Source: Octopus vulgaris
Taxonomy: Eukaryota
Reading direction: 5' to 3'
DNA: 64,000 nucleotides
NCBI GenBank assembly: GCA_951406725.2
Contig: OX597815.1
Coordinates: 10,726,001 to 10,790,000, forward strand
Under the pieces are notes generated by a model. It had not been told where the DNA came from. It searched no databases and was given only the letters and a program-made list of their open reading frames with translations. The position numbers and the translations under genes were made by a program. Below are positions 13,556-56,574 of the stretch, one piece after another (position 1 is the first letter of the stretch; each line of letters begins with the position of its first letter).

Positions 13556-15177
13556 TGGGGTTAAAAAAATAACAATAGCCGCAACACTTTACCGGTTATT
13601 AATTTGTCAAACCCTGCAAGATGAAAAAGGTTAAGCTAACACCGTAGTGAATTCGTATTAGACCAATAGCGTATCGATTTTGTTGTTGTGAATCATTTAT
13701 GTCAGAAAGCTGCAGGCATTTGGCACATGCAACCACTTTCTTTTGTTTAGTGTTGTGGAGAGAGAAAAAAAAGGTAGTTTTATAAAAATTTCATTGAGTC
13801 TTAATTGTATTTCTAACTAGCAGAGATACCCGGCGTTGCCCGAGTTACATGCAATTGAAGAATTAGACTTTTCTGTTATATTTTCTGTAATGAACTGGAA
13901 TACCTATGATTCGAATTTCATCAAAATTGCAGATGAGGGTTCTTTCCCTCTTTACACACCCTAAAAAAATTGTAATCATGACACATGTATCCCATACTAC
14001 TGATTTTTATGTGCAGATTCCAAAATTCCAGTCTTATAGAACCTGTTAAAAATGGAGTTCCTGAAAAATGGAGGTCATGGAGCTCTAAAATGTGGGAGTT
14101 AAGGCCCTTATTGGAGGTGGGTGTCTTAATGTCAACCAGAGAAGCTGAATTGTTGAGAATCTTTTTAACTTGGGTCTTATATCTATTGTTTGAATTTACT
14201 TGAAATAGGAAATATATGTATGTTCACTGGGTTTGTAAAAGAGAGCAAAGCTACAGGAAACCAAAAGACGAATGATCACAATAAGCAGTCAGCTACAGTA
14301 CCCAAGTCGTTACCACCCCCAATTTAGGATTCCTCACCATAAATGAAAAAATAAAAACATCTTACCATCTAATTTCCTGGACCAATTGGTTTCTGATTTT
14401 AGTTTAGCAAGTAACTAACATTTACCCGCTAGGTGAAATCGTATTCAATAATGTTTTTATTTTTTCATATCGTTCCTGTCGAATTTTATCCCTAATTTTG
14501 TGGTTATAGAACCTAGCTGTTGTTTCTAGCGTGTTAAATCCCACGAGTGGATTCCTTATGTGTTTAAATGTGCACTGTATTGTATGACTAATACATAGTC
14601 TTTGGACTAAATTTTTACACGTTAGGCCACTGGAAATGTAAATTTTAATTAATTTCCATTCCTCTTTGATATGATTAAGTATTGTAAGTTTTTGGATAAT
14701 TTTCGGTTTTTAAAAGTTGGCATTTTTTTTTATTGCGGGTGAAGGGCTGCGTCTGCGCAGCAGATTTTGAAAAAATTAGGATGTATAAACAAGTGGCACA
14801 TAGTTTATGCTTATATATTTAATCTAAGGTGTACCTGTTGAAGATGATTTCACCTAGCTATTTACTTGCTAAACTAAAATCGGAAACCAATTGGTCCAGG
14901 AAGCTAGATGGTAAAATGTTTTTATCTTTTAATTTCGTTCCTGTCGAATTTTATCCCTAATTTTGTGGTTGAAGAACCTAGCTGTTCTTTCTAGTGTGTT
15001 GAATCCCACGAGTGGATTCCTTATGTGTTTAATTGTAAAGTGTATCATATATATATATATATACAACTACACATATACATGTATACATATACATCTATAT
15101 CTATAGAAATACATCTATACATATACAGCTATACATACATATACATCTATATATGTATACATGTATATATATATACA

Positions 15178-15226
<49 letters not shown>

Positions 15227-15398
15227 GTAAACAAAGTCAAATGCGATACAATAAAATTAATTATTATCGCCGGTGTTCTCGCACACGCCATATATTATTC
15301 ATATATAAGTACATTAAAAGGCGAAGTGTGTGCTAGATACACAAAAGCTGGATAAATTTAATGAGATGAAAATTAAAAACTTTTACAAACTTAGTTCT

Positions 15399-15471
15399 TC
15401 TTATACTGCAGTTTCGCCTATTTCAGCAATAAAAATAATATTTATTTACTCAGGTAGGCTCTTCAGTAAGA
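15399..15471 (-). ncRNA. Minimal type I hammerhead ribozyme motif, copy 1
   Basis: Minus strand reads tctta-CTGAAGA-GCCTA(loop)TAGGC-GAAA-CTGCAG-TA-taaga: canonical core, stems I and II, palindromic stem III, GUA cleavage triplet. Confidence 0.8.
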
Positions 15472-15802
15472 TTCCTGTTATTATGGGAAGCGCACATCAA
15501 TAGAGGCACATGCGTCTATTAAATTGCTCTTTCTAAACTATTCAAATCACTGCGCAGATTCAGAACGTACCCGACAAAATAGGGTTTTCTGGTATATCGT
15601 TTAACGCTCAAAAATTTATCGAGAAAATACGTAAACAAAGTCAAATGCGATACAATAAAATTAATTATTATCGCCGGTGTTCTCGCACACGCCATATATT
15701 ATTCATATATAAGTACATTAAAAGGCGAAGTGTGTGCTAGATACACAAAAGCTGGATAAATTTAATGAGATGAAAATTAAAAACTTTTACAAACTTAGTT
15801 CT

Positions 15803-15875
15803 TCTTATACTGCAGTTTCGCCTATTTCAGCAATAAAAATAATATTTATTTACTCAGGTAGGCTCTTCAGTAAGA
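15803..15875 (-). ncRNA. Minimal type I hammerhead ribozyme motif, copy 2
   Basis: Same sequence as copy 1, 404 nt away. Confidence 0.8.
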
Positions 15876-16418
15876 TTCCTGTTATTATGGGAAGCGCATA
15901 CATATATACATGCATATATATATAAATATATATATATATACATTTGTGTAGATGTATACACATATATATATATACATTTGTGCAGATGTATACATACATA
16001 CATGTATATATATAAATAATATATATATTTTATATATATATGTATATATGTATGCTTATATATATGTGAGATAATAGTTTCACTTTAATAGTTTCAGTAT
16101 TAAAATGAAACTGCCATTACAACAGAGAGATGTTATTGTTTCACTTTTAACACAATACTGAAATACTGGAGAAGATATGATATTGCTGTGGGCTCGAACT
16201 AGGCAAGAAGTTAAACCTTTTTGGCCTATAACACTACATGGACCCTAAGTAAGGCATTTGTAAAATTTGAATGTAATTGGTTGTGTAGTTCTCAAGTTTT
16301 AGGGATTCACACGGACTCACATACACACAGACACACGTTCTCATCTTTATATATATATAGATAATGTGTAACAATGTTTTTAGTAACCATACAAATCTAA
16401 CATATATTGTTATTACAG

Positions 16419-16596
16419 ATTGATAGCAAACTGGAGAACTGCACATCTAGCCCAGTATTTACTTCTACCAATGAAGGGGACGTATATCCGTGGAATGGCA
16501 GCCAAAGCAACCAAGATTCCAATGAAAATACAGGGTGTGAAGAGACGCTTAAAACTAATGAAAACAACAATAAGTCACTCGCCACAGGCAATATAG
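16419..16596 (+). CDS. Internal coding exon (first detected in window) of a CAP-Gly-terminated protein gene; IDSKLENC...ATGNI, phase 0 to 1
   Basis: Acceptor ttattacag|ATT and donor ATAG|gtagat. Open frame; the phase-1 end joins the 25040 exon to give GAA. Confidence 0.72.
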
Positions 16597-16991: not shown

Positions 16992-17544
16992 TTTATAATA
17001 ATATTATATACCATAGCTCCGTCTGTGCATGTTGGTGTTGGTGTCATTGTTCTTTAGCCCAGTTAGGTCCAGAAAGAAATATCCACGAATTAAAGGCGGC
17101 CCCACTACAACAATTCAGATTTTTTCAAGTAAGGTGCACTTAGGACAACATTATCTAATACATTTCTTTCTCTTATCAGATTCTTGGCAGCTGTTTCTAG
17201 CAAGCCAAGCAGCAATATAGAGGCTCGGCATAGCTGTCTCTATCGTGTTATTGAGATATCTCGCAAGAAGAATGTAGAAGGGAAATGCTCTAAATTGTAT
17301 GTTTCTTGTGGTAAGATTGGTAAGGAGCAAGAATTTCTGAGAGCTGTAAGATAGAATAGAGACACAGATGTCACAAGAAGGAAATTCAAACTACTTCATT
17401 TACAATATATACTGATTCTGAAAGCTTTTGAAAAGAAGTAAAGGATTAAAACTAATCTATGTCATTTCATTTAAAGGAACCATCGATAAAACAGTGACTA
17501 ATACAATATCCTGAATTACTTCTCAATATATAGTATTCATTTTT

Positions 17545-17906
17545 TCGTCTGCCGTTACGTTCTGAGTTCAAATTCCGCCGAGGTCGACTTTGCCTTTCAT
17601 CCTTTCGGGGTCGATAAATTGAGTACCAGTTACGCACTGGGATCGATATAATCAACTTAATCCGTTTGTCAGTCCTTATTTGTCCCCTCTGTGTTTAGCC
17701 CCTTGTGGGTAGTAAATAAATAGGTATTTCGTCTGCCGCTACGTTCTGAGTTCAAATTACGCCGAGGTCGACTTTGCCTTTCATCCTTTCGGGGTCGATA
17801 AATTGAGTACCAGTTACGCACTGGGGTCGATGTAATCGACTTAATCCGTTTGTCAGTCCTTATTTGTCCCCTCTGTGTTTAGCCCCTTGTGGGTAGTAAA
17901 GAAATA
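17545..17906 (+). mobile_element. Headless SINE-A dimer
   Basis: Two body-plus-tail units joined at aaata|ggtatttcg. Confidence 0.8.
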
Positions 17907-20539: not shown

Positions 20540-20601
<62 letters not shown>

Positions 20602-20608
20602 CAACAAC

Positions 20609-20651
<43 letters not shown>

Positions 20652-20652
<1 letters not shown>

Positions 20653-22393
20653 GCCATCTATATTATATGGATGACTTAAAACTTTATGGTAAAGACAATA
20701 ATGAACTTGAAGGCCTATTGCGCACCGTGAAAGCATTCAGCGATGACATCGGGATGGAGTTTGGACTTGAGAAGTGTGCCAAGGCCACTTTCCAGAAAGG
20801 GAAAGTGAAGACCACAAATTCAGTCGTGTTAGATGTTGACACAGTCATAAGAGAGCTTGAGCAAGAACAAACATACAAATATTTAGGGATAAATGAAGGC
20901 TCTGGTATTCAGCATGCAAGCATGAAAGAGAAAATCAGGAAGGAATGTTATAGGAGAGTTCGTGCAGTCCTGAAATCTGAACTAAATGCACGTAACAAGG
21001 TGTTAGCTATAAATTCCTTAGCAGTTCCAGTTGTTACTTATTGCTACAATGTGTTGAACTGGAATATGAGTGAAGTAAAGAAAATAGATAGGAAAATACG
21101 CAAGCTGCTGAGTTGTAATAGGATGCACCACCCAAAGGCAGACGTAGATCGCCTTTACCTTCCCAGAGCCCAAGGAAGTCGAGGCCTGATCCAATTTGAA
21201 CTAGCTTACAAAACAACCACAATTGGACTGGCCAAATATCTCGAAATATCGAATGACTGGATGCTAAAGCTCGTGGAAAATCACGAGAGACGAAAGAAGC
21301 TTCATTCTATCATAAAGGAAAGCAAAAAATTTGCTATTGATCTCGTGCAGGATACCCAAACTGAACAACCCGAAGGAAGTACGGCAACTATTGTTGCAAA
21401 GAAGGTGAAAATGATGGCAATGAAAAAAGCGCACGAGCAATTGGCTGATAGGTGGGAGGAGAAACCTCTGCACGGCAAATATGTGACCCGCAGCAAACAA
21501 GCTGATGTTGACCAGAAGCAAACCCATCAGTGGCTACGGAGCTCAGGGTTAAAAGCAGAGAGCGAAGGTTTCATCTTGGCTGCTCAAGATCAAAGCCTAT
21601 TAACCCGGAACTACCAGGCCAATGTGATGAAAAATGGAGCAGACCCAAAATGCCGATTCTGCAACGACATGATTGAAACAGTGGACCACCTAATCTCTGG
21701 ATGTAAAGTCTTAGCACCAGTGGAGTATAAATTAAGACATGACAGAGTTGGACAATATCTCCATTTGCTAATAAGTCGGCATTACAATATCAAAACTGCC
21801 GACAAGTGGTATAATCACCACCCTGAGGCTGTAACTGAAGGAGAAAATGTAACCATTCTGTGGGACTTTCCAGTACATACAGACCGAACCATCAAGGCCA
21901 ATAAACCAGATATTGTTGTGAAAGACCAAAACAATAAAGTTTGCTTATTGATCGACATGAGCATCCCCTGTGATCATAATATCTCAGCGAAAGAGTTTGA
22001 CAAGCACAGAAAATATAAAGATCTACTCATTGAAATTGAGAAAATGTGGCATCTCAAGGCGGTTACAATACCAGTGATCGTAGGAGCACTAGGAATGATC
22101 AAGAAGGGAACCGAAAATTATATGAGAATGATCCCTGGCTTACCATCCCTGCAAGAAGTGCAAAAGATTGTCTTAACTGGTACATCACATGTATTGAGAA
22201 GAGCATTGTCGATGTGAGAACTGTTGCTGCTCATGTATTTTAATTTAACTTTAAAAAAAATTTTTTTTTTTTAAATGAACGAACTACTGAGTTTGGTTTA
22301 ATGGCCTACCAATGTATACTATGAGTTTCTTTGCCCTAGGAGTCGGGAAGACACTCGGCAAGAAATGGAAGCAAATTTGAAAGAAGAAAAAAA

Positions 22394-23375: not shown

Positions 23376-25039
23376 TTAAGAGATATTTCTTACTTGCACC
23401 GGACACCAAGAAAATTAAATATTCGCCTCAAGTTTCTTAAATTTTTCCCCTCCCCTTCTCTCGAGGGAGCGAAACACTCACATATCAATATTCCGTTTTT
23501 GTCATCAACACTCAGGCAGCATATTACCAATCTCAGTTTCTCTCTTATTTCAAACTAATAATCATAATGATTTTTTGTTATGATAATGAGATGACAATGA
23601 CGAAGATGACGACAATGATGATGATGATGATGATGATGACGACGACGACGACGATGACGATGACGACGATGGTGGTGGTAGTGATGATATTCGCCAGTGT
23701 CATCGTAATTGTGGTTGTGATGGTAACCATTTCTAATTTCTAAATTTATAATTCCTTGCTGAAATAATTTTCTTATTTTGGCACGTGACAAACAATTTTA
23801 GGGTAGGGGGTTTAGTCGATGCCATCGACCCAGTGCTCAACTGGTACTTTATTTCATCGATCTCGAAAAAATGAAGGGTAAAGTCTACCCCGACGGATTT
23901 TGAACTTAAAACGTAGAACCGGAATGATGGCCACACACGTCCATTTCGACGTATGATGGTTTGAAGGGGAGGGTTTTAAAATAAAAAGATTACAAAATAA
24001 AAGAAGCTGTAACTTTTTGTGATGGATGCAAGAATGTAATTTGAGTCCAGGTATATCACAATTGTGACTATGAAGTCACAATTGGGACACTGGCGACTTT
24101 GATTTTGCCTGGTATTGGACAAATGTGTATTTTCCATCTAAAGCATTATCCAGCCTGTAAAATGCTGTGAGAGTTTGGGAACATTGTGGATGCTAAATCC
24201 CAGTTTATCTGAACACATGATTGCAGTTCGGTCAAAGTGACAAGCCGCAGAATGATATCACACGAACGACACCCACACCAGTTCACCTGCATTTTCGTCG
24301 TTATCATTTCCATAATATAGCGCGTGCTTGCACTTCAGCAGAGACGGCATCCAAAAACCAACACGGGGCGAGTGCTGGCAGCAGATGGATTTTTTTCTAA
24401 TCAACAGAACCTGATTATTCCGTAAAAAGCAAAATATACAATCCATCTAGTCAGATGTAAACACCAATAAGAATATGTTGGCACTATCCACTTCCTCTCG
24501 GTTTTTCCAGGATAACTTCTTAACCCAATTCTCAGTGAAAGTGGCTCCTCTACCCGAAAACCTCTTCCCAGATCTTTTCTACCTCGAGGTCCCAATAGGA
24601 TTGTGAAGGTCGTGGACACAACTTCTCGCTCCGGGACAAACTGATATTGCAGACAAGCAAAGTCTACGTATATCAGTTCGAATAATTTATTATTCAGAAC
24701 ACATTTCGTTACACAGACTAACCGATACATTGGCTTACACACAATCTGACTGACATCTTAACTCATACATTGACTAACATACTGGTAAAGAAATAATTGC
24801 TTCATTCTAAAAGGGAATGAATCATTTTCTAGAATAAGCAGCAGCCATGTTTTAAGTATATCTTTTGACGAAATGAAACGAAGATTCATTGACAGACCTA
24901 GAATGTATGCTGATATCGATGAGTTATCGTACATGCTTTCGTATGATGAGTTTAACTGCTGTTTTTGCTCAATGATAGCGTCTACTTTATTTTGAAAATA
25001 GCTCTAATCTATTTCTTTTCTCTTCTTTTCTATTTTCAG

Positions 25040-25591
25040 AAGTTACAGACTGCGTGTTTCCACAGACTAACAGCCGGCATTTAAGTGCAGAATCGAAAGA
25101 AATGCAGAATATTCCTGGAGGAAAATCTCAGCTTGAAAATAATCATTCTGGTCCAGACTGCAAATCTTCATCTGAGCTTTGGGCCAAAGACAAAGCACAA
25201 CTTACTGAGATGGGAACGGATAATATGAATTTGATATCATCTTCTCTGACATCATCGAAAAACGGCAAGAGAAATGACAAAATGCACAGGGAAGATGCTG
25301 TCAACAGAAAAAAAGAAGCTCAACATCGTGAATTCAACAATATTGAGTTGGTTAACAACTCATTGATTACAGATGTCCACAGTTTTCCACCTTCGAGACA
25401 GACCCGCTGGGACCAGTACAACCAAGTCAGACTCAATGAAACTTCCATTCGAAAACTGCAGAAATCCCTGGATGCTCAAGACCACATGCACCAAAGCTTC
25501 CTGGAACATTATAAACCGAATAGTAATTTCCAGGCCAGTCTCTCACACACCAGCGATCAACAGAAGTCGTCAAGAAATAGATTCAAACGTG
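25040..25591 (+). CDS. Coding exon, low-complexity Ser/Asn-rich region (EVTDCVFPQ...RFKR), phase 1 to 1
   Basis: Strong polypyrimidine acceptor ttttctattttcag|AA and donor CGTG|gtaaag. Frame continuous with the 251-aa ORF at 25054. Confidence 0.8.
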
Positions 25592-26301
25592 GTAAAGCAA
25601 GATTGAGTTTCCTTCAAATATTTTTGTTCCTACGAACAAAGACAACACCATCATTACAGCCATCCATCACCACCAACATTATCATTACTACAAGCACCAA
25701 TACTGCCTGTACAGTCACAACAAACACCTCGTCCCTAGTGCTATTACGACCATCGACACTACTCCCATTATTATTTTCCCGATCACTACCTCGAAGGCAC
25801 GTGGCTTAGTGGCTGGTGTATTTGGTTCGTGATCGCTAGATTGTGATTACAGTTCACAAAGACGGGCTGTGTCCTTGAGCAAGACACTTTTTTTTTAAAT
25901 TTCAAGTTGTTCCAGTCCCACTCAGCTGACAAAATGAGTAGTACCTGCATTTCAAAGGACCAGCCTTGTCACATTCTGTGTCACGCCGAATCTCCTGAGA
26001 ACTCCGTTAAGGATACGCATATCCGCAGTGTTCAGTCCCTTGTTACGCTAATTTCGCAAGCAGACTGTTCTGTTGATCGAATCAACCGGAACACTCATCG
26101 TCGTAACCGATGGAATGCCATTATCTGTCACTACCATCATTACCTAACCACAAACTACATCTCCCTACAACTAACCACGACAATTAACCATAACGACATC
26201 TCCCACAATTGCCCCCAAGTACCACGACTGCCATCTCTCCCCGCTCCGTTGACGTTATTACTTTCACTGCCACAATACAATTATCTACAACATAACACAC
26301 T

Positions 26302-44285: not shown

Positions 44286-44289
44286 TTAC

Positions 44290-44710
44290 GAAATACCTAT
44301 TTCTTCACTAAACACAAAGGGATAAACACAGAGAGGACAAACAAGGACACACAAACGATTAAGTTGATTATATTGACCCTAATGCGTAACTGGTACTTAT
44401 TTAATCGACCCCGAAAGGATGAAAGGCAAAGTCGACCTCGGCGGAATTTGAACTCAGAACGTAGCGGCAGACGAAATACCTAATTCTTTACTACCAACAA
44501 GGAGCTAAACACAGAGGGGACAAACAAGAACAGACAAACGGATTAAGTCGATTATATCGACGCCAGTGCGTAACTGGTACTTATTTAATCGACCCCGAAA
44601 GGATGAAAGGCAAAGTCGACCTCGGACTTTGAACTCAGAACGTAGCGGCAGACGAAATACTGCTATGCATTTCGCCCGGCGTGCTAACGATTCTGCCAGC
44701 TCGCCGCCTT
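44290..44710 (-). mobile_element. SINE-A dimer/chain
   Basis: Units joined at tail|GGTATTTC. Confidence 0.82.
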
Positions 44711-50981: not shown

Positions 50982-51735
50982 AGGCGGCGAGCTGGCAAAA
51001 TCGTTAGCGCGCCAGGCGAAATGCTTAGCGGTATTTCATCTGCCGTTACGTTCTGTGCTCAAATTCCCTCGAGGTCGACTTTGCCTTTCATCCTTTCGAG
51101 GTCGATTAAATAAGTACCAGTTACGCACTGGGATCAATATTGTCCTTGTTTGTCCTCTCTGTGTTTAGCCCCTTGTGGATAGTAAAGAAATAGGTATTTC
51201 GCCCGTCGCTACGTTCTGAGTTCAAATTCCGCCGAGGTCGACTTTGCCTTTCATCCTTTCGGGGTCGATTAAATAAGTACCAGTTACGCACTGGGGTTGA
51301 TATAATCGATTTAATCCGTTTGTCTGTCCTTGTTTGTCCTCACTGTGTTTGCCCCTTGTGGGTAGTAAAGAAATGGGTATTTCGTCTGCCGCTACGTTCT
51401 GAGTTCAAATTCCGCCGAGATCGACTTTGCCTTTCATCCTTTCGGGGACGATAAAATAAGTACCAGTTACGCACTGGGGTCGATGTAATCGACTTAATCC
51501 GTTTGTGTGTCCTTGTCTGTCCTCTCTGTGTTTAGCCCCTTGTGGGTAGTAAAGAAATAGAAATAGGTATTTCACCCGTCGCTACGTTCTGAGTTCAAAT
51601 TCCGCCGAGGTTGACTTTGCCTTTCATCCTTTCGGGGTCGATAAATTAAGTGTCAGTTGCGTACTGGGGTCGATCTAATTGACTGGCCCCTTCCCGCCAA
51701 AATTTCTGGCCTTGTGCCTATAGTAGAAAGGATTA
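50982..51735 (+). mobile_element. SINE-A tetramer chain: one head, four bodies
   Basis: Internal junctions tail|ggtatttc near 51191, 51375 and 51566. The last unit has the alternative tail. Confidence 0.88.
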
Positions 51736-52845: not shown

Positions 52846-53395
52846 TTTTTACAAGATTCTTTATATGAGTTCGTGTGTTGAAGCATATTCTGTTGTGTCT
52901 GGGGAGGGTAATTTTCTTTTTCTACCTTATAATGTAACACAATCACCGGTAAAATTTCCACATTTTTCTTATTTTTATTTTCCTAAAATTTTCGTTGCGT
53001 CTTGCAACCTTTTCAATAGTCTTGACTCTGAAAAGATTGCAAAGCTATTGAAAAGGTTGCAAGACGCAACGAAAATTTTAGGAAAATAAAAATAAGAAAT
53101 AAGTGGAAATTTTGACTCTTGAAAAGGTTGCAAGACGCAACGAAAATTTTAGTAAAATAAAAATAAGAAATAAGTGGAAATTTTGACTCTTGAAAAGGTT
53201 GCAAGACGCAACGAAAATTTTAGGAAAATAAAAATAAGAAATAAGTGGAAATTTTGACTCTTGAAAAGGTTGCAAGACGCAACGAAAATTTTAGGAATCT
53301 AAAAATAAGAAATAGGTGGAAATTCTACTGGTGAGTGTGTTACATTATAAGGCACAAAAAGAAAATTACTCTCCCCAGACACAACAGAATCTTTT
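52845..53395. mobile_element. Foldback-like element with four internal 71-bp tandem units
   Basis: Long inverted arms. Units start at 53048, 53119, 53190 and 53261. Confidence 0.75.
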
Positions 53396-55148: not shown

Positions 55149-56574
55149 GAAATTGTGGCTAAGTTTACCTCATTTAACACCCTATCGAAATTGTGGCTAA
55201 GTTTACCTCATTTAACACCCTATCGAAATTGTGGCTAAGTTTACCTCATTTAACACCCTATCGAAATTGTAGCTAAGTTTACCTCATTTAACACCCTATC
55301 GAAATTGTGGCTAAGTTTACCTCATTTAACACCCTATCGAAATTGTAGCTAAGTTTACCTCATTTAACACCCTATCGAAATTGTGGCTAAGTTTACCTCA
55401 TTTAACACCCTATCGAAATTGTGGCTAAGTTTACCTCATTTAACACCCTATCGAAATTGTGGCTAAGTTTACCTCATTTAACACCCTATCGAAATTGTGG
55501 CTAAGTTTACCTCATTTAACACCCTATCGAAATTGTGGCTAAGTTTACCTCATTTAACACCCTATCGAAATTGTGGCTAAGTTTACCTCATTTAACACCC
55601 TATCGAAATTGTGGCTAAGTTTACCTCATTTAACACCCTATCGAAATTGTAGCTAAGTTTACCTCATTTAACACCCTATCGAAATTGTGGCTAAGTTTAC
55701 CTCATTTAACACCCTATCGAAATTGTAGCTAAGTTTACCTCATTTAACACCCTATCGAAATTGTAGCTAAGTTTACCTCATTTAACACCCTATCGAAATT
55801 GTGGCTAAGTTTACCTCATTTAACACCCTATCGAAATTGTGCTAAGTTTACCTCATTTAACACCCTATCGAAATTGTGGCTAAGTTTACCTCATTTAACA
55901 ACGAAATTGTGGCCCTCATTTAACATCGAAATTGTGGCTAAGTTTACCTCATTTAACACCCTATCGAAATTGTGGCTAAGTTTACCTCATTTAACACCCT
56001 ATCGAAATTGTGGCTAAGTTTACCTCATTTAACACCCTATCGAAATTGTAGCTAAGTTTACCTCATTTAACACCCTATCGAAATTGTAGCTAAGTTTACC
56101 TCATTTAACACCCTATCGAAATTGTGGCTAAGTTTACCTCATTTAACACCCTATCGAAATTGTGGCTAAGTTTACCTCATTTAACACCCTATCGAAATTG
56201 TGGCTAAGTTTACCTCATTTAACACCCTATCGAAATTGTGGCTAAGTTTACCTCATTTAACACCCTAATTGAAATTGTGGCTAAGTTTACCTCATTTAAC
56301 ACCCTATCGAAATTGTGGCTAAGTTTACCTCATTTAACACCCTATCGAAATTGTGGCTAAGTTTACCTCATTTAACACCCTATCGAAATTGTGGCTAAGT
56401 TTACCTCATTTAACACCCTATCGAAATTGTGGCTAAGTTTACCTCATTTAACACCCTATCGAAATTGTGGCGAAGTTTACCTCATTTAACACCCTATCGA
56501 AATTGTGGCTAAGTTTACCTCATTTAACACCCTATCGAAATTGTGGCTAAGTTTACCTCATTTAACACCCTATC
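55149..56574. repeat. 38-bp minisatellite (GAAATTGTGGCTAAGTTTACCTCATTTAACACCCTATC), about 37 copies
   Basis: Head-to-tail near-perfect units with a G/A variant at unit position 9. No spacers. Confidence 0.97.

Follow-up and report, generated by a model that had tools for sequence, protein, structure and literature searches.

Two identical direct repeats, each carrying a hammerhead ribozyme motif, are embedded in TA-rich microsatellite sequence at one locus of the Octopus vulgaris genome, and their arrangement raises the question of which kind of element they form and by what route it arrived. We addressed this question in the window (the whole stretch of DNA analysed, 64 kb long) and by comparison with public sequencing runs.

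Architecture of the insertion and its hammerhead motifs

The insertion occupies positions 15223-15898 on the minus strand (delimited by exact-repeat comparison) and totals 676 nt, or 1.67 copies of a 404-nt unit (272 + 132 + 272). Its two direct repeats, 15223-15494 and 15627-15898, are 272 nt each, 100% identical (272 of 272 nt) and set at a period of 404. The original prediction of identical ~270-bp repeats with a ~130-bp spacer in a TA-rich microsatellite is therefore borne out, although its bounds of 15225-15899 were off by 1 to 2 nt. The spacer (15495-15626, minus strand, 132 nt) is the remainder of the unit and occurs in single copy; at least three contig pieces from the sequencing runs span it together with both junctions. 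Read in the ribozyme sense, on the minus strand, the 5′ repeat is 15627-15898, and its 5′ end at 15898 is likely a truncation point. The 3′ repeat (15223-15494, minus strand) abuts a (TA)n tract with 3 nt of microhomology, the letters ATA being common to repeat and tract, and the left element end is ambiguous by these 3 nt. That 3′ end, at 15223-15226, falls 178 to 181 nt beyond the predicted cleavage site. In the tandem-repeat listing, TA-rich microsatellites flank the insertion on the left (15047-15225, ending in a pure (TA)n run) and on the right (15898-16065), and the left (TA)n tract is the likely insertion target. Target-site duplications of non-LTR retrozymes, where present, are taken to exceed 4 bp; here, a search for them returned TA-type matches only, of at most 7 nt and indistinguishable from the microsatellite. 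The 64-kb window holds no further copies of the element, and the 1.67-mer is absent from the output of Tandem Repeats Finder.

The degenerate TA flanks (15047-15222 versus 15899-16065) form a loose inverted pair (74% over 121 nt), and a brief stretch of non-TA sequence occurs in both, oppositely oriented; this inverted likeness may be mere microsatellite symmetry. Adjoining the left TA tract on its outer side, inverted repeats at 14341-14448 and 14838-14935 (82% over 108 nt) are overlapped by direct repeats at 14450-14580 and 14915-15045 (91%). Together, the repeats at 14341-15045 look like a rearranged MITE-like or inverted-tandem element, of which the window has no second copy.

Each repeat contains, on the minus strand, all the hammerhead parts that had been named for it: a stem I of 5 bp, CUGAAGA, stem II (GCCUA/UAGGC), GAAA, CUGCAG and GUA. 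Both copies were recovered by a core pattern, a pairing descriptor and Rfam: the first, at 15802-15876, with predicted cleavage 3′ of 15808 (GUA), and the second, at 15398-15472, with predicted cleavage 3′ of 15404 (GUA here, GUC in many contigs of the family). Helix II is prolonged by an irregular AU-rich hairpin. The motif had been described as a minimal type I hammerhead with a palindromic CUGCAG stem III; the type I core and the palindrome stand, but the palindrome is 8 nt long (ACUGCAGU), and the term "minimal" does not apply, since helix III consists of 2 bp with a UGCA tetraloop. By definition, the minimal hammerhead of Penelope-like elements (PLEs) lacks helix III, and in most cases its helix II is preceded by an additional base (PMC4209133). 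The octopus motif has the 2-bp helix III, and its G10.1 directly follows A9; it resembles the invertebrate type I hammerhead, with its short helix III, more closely than the "minimal" form of PLEs.

The motif is unlikely to be a chance match. The core pattern has 2 matches, against 0.04 expected and with 2 matches in 0 of 100 dinucleotide shuffles, and across the 64 kb the stem-pairing descriptor identifies these 2 and no others, whereas 100 Markov simulations yielded 0.01 on average (0 for its strict form). Because the two matches are one motif duplicated, they count as one independent observation. An Rfam scan, suggested along with the original prediction, gave 0 matches at gathering level. 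Below that level, both copies match RF00163 (Hammerhead_1) over the full model (E 0.00067-0.0032), with all core letters aligned, helices I-III present and helix I open, as in type I hammerheads; their 24.2 bits remain under the gathering cut-off of 34, and loop 2 carries a 32-nt insertion. Matches to miRNA families in the same sub-threshold scan were dismissed as TA-tract noise.

In the predicted fold of the 676-nt transcript, helix II forms with a probability of 0.95-1.0. Each copy's 8-nt palindrome pairs with that of the other copy (P 0.61-0.66), leaving monomeric helix III at 0. Double-hammerhead folds in the active form account for 0.012 of the ensemble with the cut at 15404 and for 0.003 with that at 15808, folds with both sites active together for 7e−5 and single-ribozyme active folds 2-3e−6. 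Cleavage is thus predicted to depend on the dimer. Stem I is sparsely formed (monomer pairs 0.02-0.27, cross pairs ~0.02 and 0.006), and because helix I is weak in the model, activity may be low or may require a protein. In the lowest-energy circle, the core CUG pairs with the helix III CAG, which, if the model holds, would guard the circle against re-cutting. The predicted circle is 65% paired (z −1.26, with 7 of 100 shuffles as good), whereas its opposite strand folds better (z −2.37), and the comparison gives no support for selection of a compact circle.

The predicted monomer lies between the two cleavage sites (15404-15807, minus strand), and would be released as a 404-nt RNA with 33% GC. 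Stops break all six frames of the unit, the two longest frames of the monomer have no Pfam match, and no ORF with a telomerase-like reverse transcriptase and a GIY-YIG endonuclease lies in or adjoining the element. The locus combines two consecutive hammerheads, whose direct repeats have a period (404) within the 150-450 bp described for non-LTR retrozymes, with a non-coding sequence of less than 50% GC, also described for them.

The nearest exon of a host gene, at 16419-16595 on the plus strand, lies ~520 nt to the right (downstream) of the element, and protein mapping places further plus-strand exons at 25039-25593, 28215-28355 and onward. The exon at 25039-25593 is 100% identical to an Octopus vulgaris protein and 98% to an O. 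sinensis protein. Homologues of the host gene carry PF01302, the CAP-Gly domain. We infer that the element sits in a long intron; its intronic position is inferential because residues 1-615 of the mapped protein (P0001) map nowhere in the window. Since every mapped exon is on the plus strand, the minus-strand ribozymes are antisense to the host gene, as had been predicted. The host pre-mRNA has the non-catalytic strand and would escape cutting. The antisense intronic position makes it unlikely that the host transcript is affected directly, and this copy is likely a tolerated passenger. Other repeats populate the region. The host gene has two intronic minisatellites, at 55149-56574 (38-nt period, 38 copies) and 53048-53324 (71-nt period, 3.9 copies). 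Pieces of non-LTR retrotransposon ORFs, resembling those of R4/Dong-type elements, occur beside (AAT)n tracts at 20541-22217 (with a weak RVT_1 match), 32102-34197 and 36101-36733. Head-to-tail arrays with periods of 249 and 183-184 at 2173-3425, 17543-17906, 44288-44660 and 51141-51684 look like one SINE-like repeat.

The family in public sequencing runs

Part of the unit is present in 20 of the 24 listed runs, which come from 10 studies and carry four organism labels. We compared four of these 24 runs (X1, X2, X4 and X11, with three organism labels), using one permuted unit (15295-15705) as the reference. X4 and X2 are DNA runs, X11 is RNA by guess only, no listed run is recorded as RNA, and the contigs of all four carry no strand or end information. 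All four contain contigs matching the unit (14, 184, 227 and 43, with 184 and 227 in the DNA runs), numbers that are not true copy numbers; the multi-copy nature for which a check had been suggested is thus established. Identities range from bands of 99+ down to <90%, and the family includes a subfamily diverged by ~13%. These contigs represent a multi-copy family in which a short unit is conserved, as in retrozymes. The copy in the window differs from all compared contigs at 15559 and 15601. Among the listed differences between the window and the runs (15295-15705), plus-strand T>A exceeds A>T in all four runs (9:1, 6:2, 8:3 and 9:2), counts that are unpolarised.

The arrangement of the unit recurs outside the window. 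Among the 32 pieces listed (470 in total), five bridge the junction 15626/15627 with at least 31 letters on each side, and they come from X1, X4 and X11, i.e., from three of the four runs. Three of the five also cross 15494/15495, one of them with 3 differences in 311 nt and another with 37 in 292 nt. Because the junction is common to several runs and to a diverged contig, we consider it a trait of the family rather than a truncation peculiar to one copy. In the contigs, the unit closes on itself after 403-404 nt (joints of 385 + 18 and 388 + 16 letters); these joints stem from the reference having been cut inside a repeat and so show the unit length, not a circle. Only the 1.67-mer was seen, with no long array. 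The contigs are short: among the 19 loose contig ends listed of 58, none exceeds 125 nt, and no autonomous partner element was found in them. Position 15627 corresponds to the element end at 15223, and in one X2 contig it is immediately preceded by an AT run, so that a (TA)n target beyond this locus is represented by one contig. Summed depth is highest at the 3′ end in both DNA runs, with 26k at the spacer, 68k at the ribozyme, then 80k and 171k in X4, and 9k, 17k, 14k and 22k in X2. This gradient weakly suggests that the 3′ end is fixed and that copies are truncated at the 5′ end; the suggestion is weak because summed depth is no copy number.

Variation within the motif bears on the covariation that the original prediction had asked for in stems I and II, and it supplies one compensatory pair in stem II, whereas helix I is invariant among the 40 of 50 variant rows available. 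In record 7 of X1, helix II pair 4 changes from U-A to A-U, pair 5 changes from A-U to G-U and a distal U-G becomes U-A, so that pairing is kept. Depth sums point to the same pair-4 change in one contig each of X11 and X2, and the three occurrences probably represent a single inherited event. An unphased variant at 15420 would break helix II pair 5. Position 17 is A or C (GUA or GUC) in all four runs, with C accounting for 80% of the depth in X2, 14% in X4 and 45% in X11, and for one contig in X1. Both GUA and GUC are cleavable triplets. For X1 record 7, 32 differences are listed, and all of them lie outside a 35-nt set made up of the core, helices I and III and the three basal pairs of helix II (P 0.013). 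This set was chosen after inspection of the variant table, and five of the record's 37 differences are unlisted, so that P would become 0.04 if one of them lay inside the set and 0.14 if two did.

A possible 96-nt intron (15475-15570, minus strand) has a donor-like site in the spacer and its acceptor AG 3 nt before helix I, a layout like that described for D. virilis Penelope. Its GT and acceptor are unchanged among the listed differences of the diverged contig, the donor changes at +3/+4, and the X11 contigs contain no spliced joint. Sites of this kind are common in the element (3 donor-like and 10 acceptor-like), and the intron is no more than a lead. Hammerhead pattern scans gave 0 matches in viral contigs and, in metagenomes, 0 and then 1 match. 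The latter contig (L001) has a minus-strand motif at 191-241 (within 170-260) whose helix III palindrome is identical, next to a frame that recurs at the end of the contig; we rejected it as a relative, as it has a single hammerhead-like motif and just 14 nt in common with the element.

Origin of the insertion

We propose that the 676-nt copy is most likely a recently inserted non-autonomous non-LTR retrozyme that was mobilised in trans by a PLE. A source locus with at least two units would have been transcribed in the ribozyme sense, and the 8-nt palindromes of two units would join these in a double hammerhead, as the fold prediction suggests. Two cuts would then release the 404-nt monomer, which a host ligase may close into a circle, by analogy with mussel and axolotl. 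The GIY-YIG endonuclease of a PLE would nick (TA)n, and, to judge from the end at 15223, its reverse transcriptase would start ~180 nt beyond the cleavage site. Copying of more than one unit, from a circle or from an uncut multimer, with a stop after 676 nt, would leave identical repeats.

Several published observations provide a background for this scheme. PLEs account for 6.83% of the O. vulgaris genome, with 190 families and 336 recently active insertions (PMC13282606), and a microsatellite bias is reported for Neptune and Naiad PLEs (PMC8557442). Frog non-LTR retrozymes match PLE pLTRs (10.64898/2026.07.22.740005), mussel units of 350-390 bp yield circles (PMC7229834), and copying of more than a unit from a circle has been proposed (PMC4209133, PMC7229834). 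PAc, the one PLE reconstituted, inserts from unprocessed RNA, without need of ribozyme cleavage, and its ribozyme is protein-assisted (PMC11167929). As for age, JC 0.09 corresponds to 25 My, or 0.0036 changes per site per million years (PMC13282606), and zero differences in 272 nt then give an age of at most ~1.5 My (95%), barring gene conversion. We call the insertion young because its repeats are identical, in line with the recent event originally suspected.

The same DNA could also be a doubly 5′-truncated partial tandem (pLTR) of an autonomous PLE, in which 272- and 404-nt 3′ fragments lie head to tail and an independent short family does not exist. PLEs are described as inserting as partial tandems and as carrying type I hammerheads in their pLTRs (PMC4209133, PMC8557442), and the depth, with its 3′ peak and a dip near the junction, agrees with such an origin, as does a 57-aa minus-strand frame that ends in the spacer. 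A truncation junction should vary, yet the same junction appears in three of four runs and in a contig diverged by 13%; the 57-aa frame, moreover, has no Pfam match and no homologue among longer proteins, and we consider this origin quite unlikely. One stretch of the frame we take to be loosely like a GIY-YIG C terminus. The only match to the frame in 1.84 billion representatives (P0005, by phmmer) was discarded as a tandem-repeat translation whose score is summed over 7 stretches.

Alternatively, the family may have the origin proposed here while the second repeat arose through a local DNA event (unequal crossover or slippage between the TA tracts) or from an uncut tandem transcript, the ribozyme being a barely active relic that makes no circular RNA. 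Perfect repeat identity suits any recent duplication, an uncut tandem transcript would yield identical DNA, and the predicted circle is without special structure. The frog preprint favours local satellite-like expansion, with 8 of 9 retrozyme dimers uncleaved in vitro and 1 of 9 cleaved (10.64898/2026.07.22.740005), and for PAc, which uses unprocessed RNA, the account given is that no RNA-seq reads end at the cleavage site (PMC11167929). A purely local event leaves unexplained both the junction shared with runs from other organisms and the stem II changes that keep pairing. We judge a local or relic origin very unlikely, and its uncut-multimer variant overlaps with the retrozyme explanation at the step of multi-unit copying. 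An assembly artefact, with the duplication created between the two TA microsatellites, is hardly credible: the repeats are 100% identical, the flanks are of low complexity and no read spanning the locus was seen, but independent contigs close the unit at 403-404 nt and bridge both junctions, and the arrangement therefore exists in the family beyond this assembly.

For the non-autonomous retrozyme that we favour, the formation of circles has to be considered separately. That some member of the family gives rise to circles has, in our view, a slightly less than even chance, and that this antisense copy does so is unlikely. We only tentatively raise the rather doubtful possibility that the insertion is the footprint of rolling-circle reverse transcription, in which a PLE enzyme, primed at (TA)n, copied 1.67 turns of a 404-nt circle that a ribozyme had produced. 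If so, the family would represent a circular-RNA retroelement active in a cephalopod, with the start of copying fixed ~180 nt beyond the ligation site, and it would offer a direct genomic and biochemical test of the long-proposed, unproven circular template for tandem formation by retrozymes and PLEs.

Relation to known retrozymes and Penelope-like elements

Octopus PLEs with a (TA)n preference are represented by Naiad_Ovul and Naiad_Obim (PMC8557442 supplement), and the element likewise lies in (TA)n. Naiads differ from the element in that they are described as lacking canonical hammerheads and as remnants in cephalopods (PMC8557442), and their ends, compared by eye and without alignment, bear no clear resemblance to it (PMC8557442 supplement). 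A Naiad was dismissed as the parent, given this lack of canonical hammerheads and the fact that no 11-mer around helix III matched an octopus entry in that supplement.

The hammerheads of PLE pLTRs (PMC4209133; PAc, PMC11167929) share with the element a 5-bp helix I, a palindromic helix III, the logic of a dimer, the partial-tandem layout, a 3′ end downstream of the ribozyme and an AT-rich target. Unlike these, the element has no ORF, has a helix III and lacks the extra base between 9 and 10.1. Its 3′ end extends ~180 nt past the cut and is U/G-rich, compared with ~85-92 nt and an AC-rich end in PAc (PMC11167929). Non-autonomous PLE derivatives are known from hosts that have PLEs (10.64898/2026.07.22.740005), and the octopus is such a host. 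That survey covers 35 species (31 vertebrates, three insects and one coral), with no mollusc among those given. In it, Li, Clavereau and Pollet define an active retrozyme by two consecutive complete hammerheads, which the octopus element has.

Non-LTR retrozymes are a kind of element already described, in mussels, corals and amphibians, the axolotl example being HHR_Amex2 (Cervera and de la Pena 2020, PMC7229834). Our search, from which most subscription papers were excluded, found no published description of a retrozyme in cephalopods. The giant squid genome paper counts 235 Hammerhead_1 loci (PMC6962438), and the present family may be contained, unlabelled, in the O. vulgaris repeat library (Zenodo; PMC13282606). 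Because mussels have retrozymes, specialists would expect them in cephalopods, and the value of the octopus family lies in its testability: it is young and of high copy number, both its ends are visible, and its genome has recently active PLEs. It could be used to ask by which PLE clade retrozymes are moved and whether circles serve as their templates.

The closest counterparts of the element are the metazoan non-LTR retrozymes of PMC7229834, with which it shares a spacing of 150-450 bp between direct repeats that carry type I hammerheads, a tetraloop-capped helix III of 2 bp, GC below 50%, the absence of an ORF of a known family and coexisting PLEs, and, with those of Mytilus galloprovincialis (350-390-bp repeats), a mollusc host. 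Relative to the elements described there, the 404-nt octopus unit is at the upper end of the size range, loop 2 has a 32-nt AU-rich hairpin insertion, and only 1.67 units are present, inside (TA)n. Retrozyme circles are described as highly self-paired, whereas the octopus circle is not strongly so in silico. As a likely member of this kind, the octopus family extends non-LTR retrozymes to the cephalopods.
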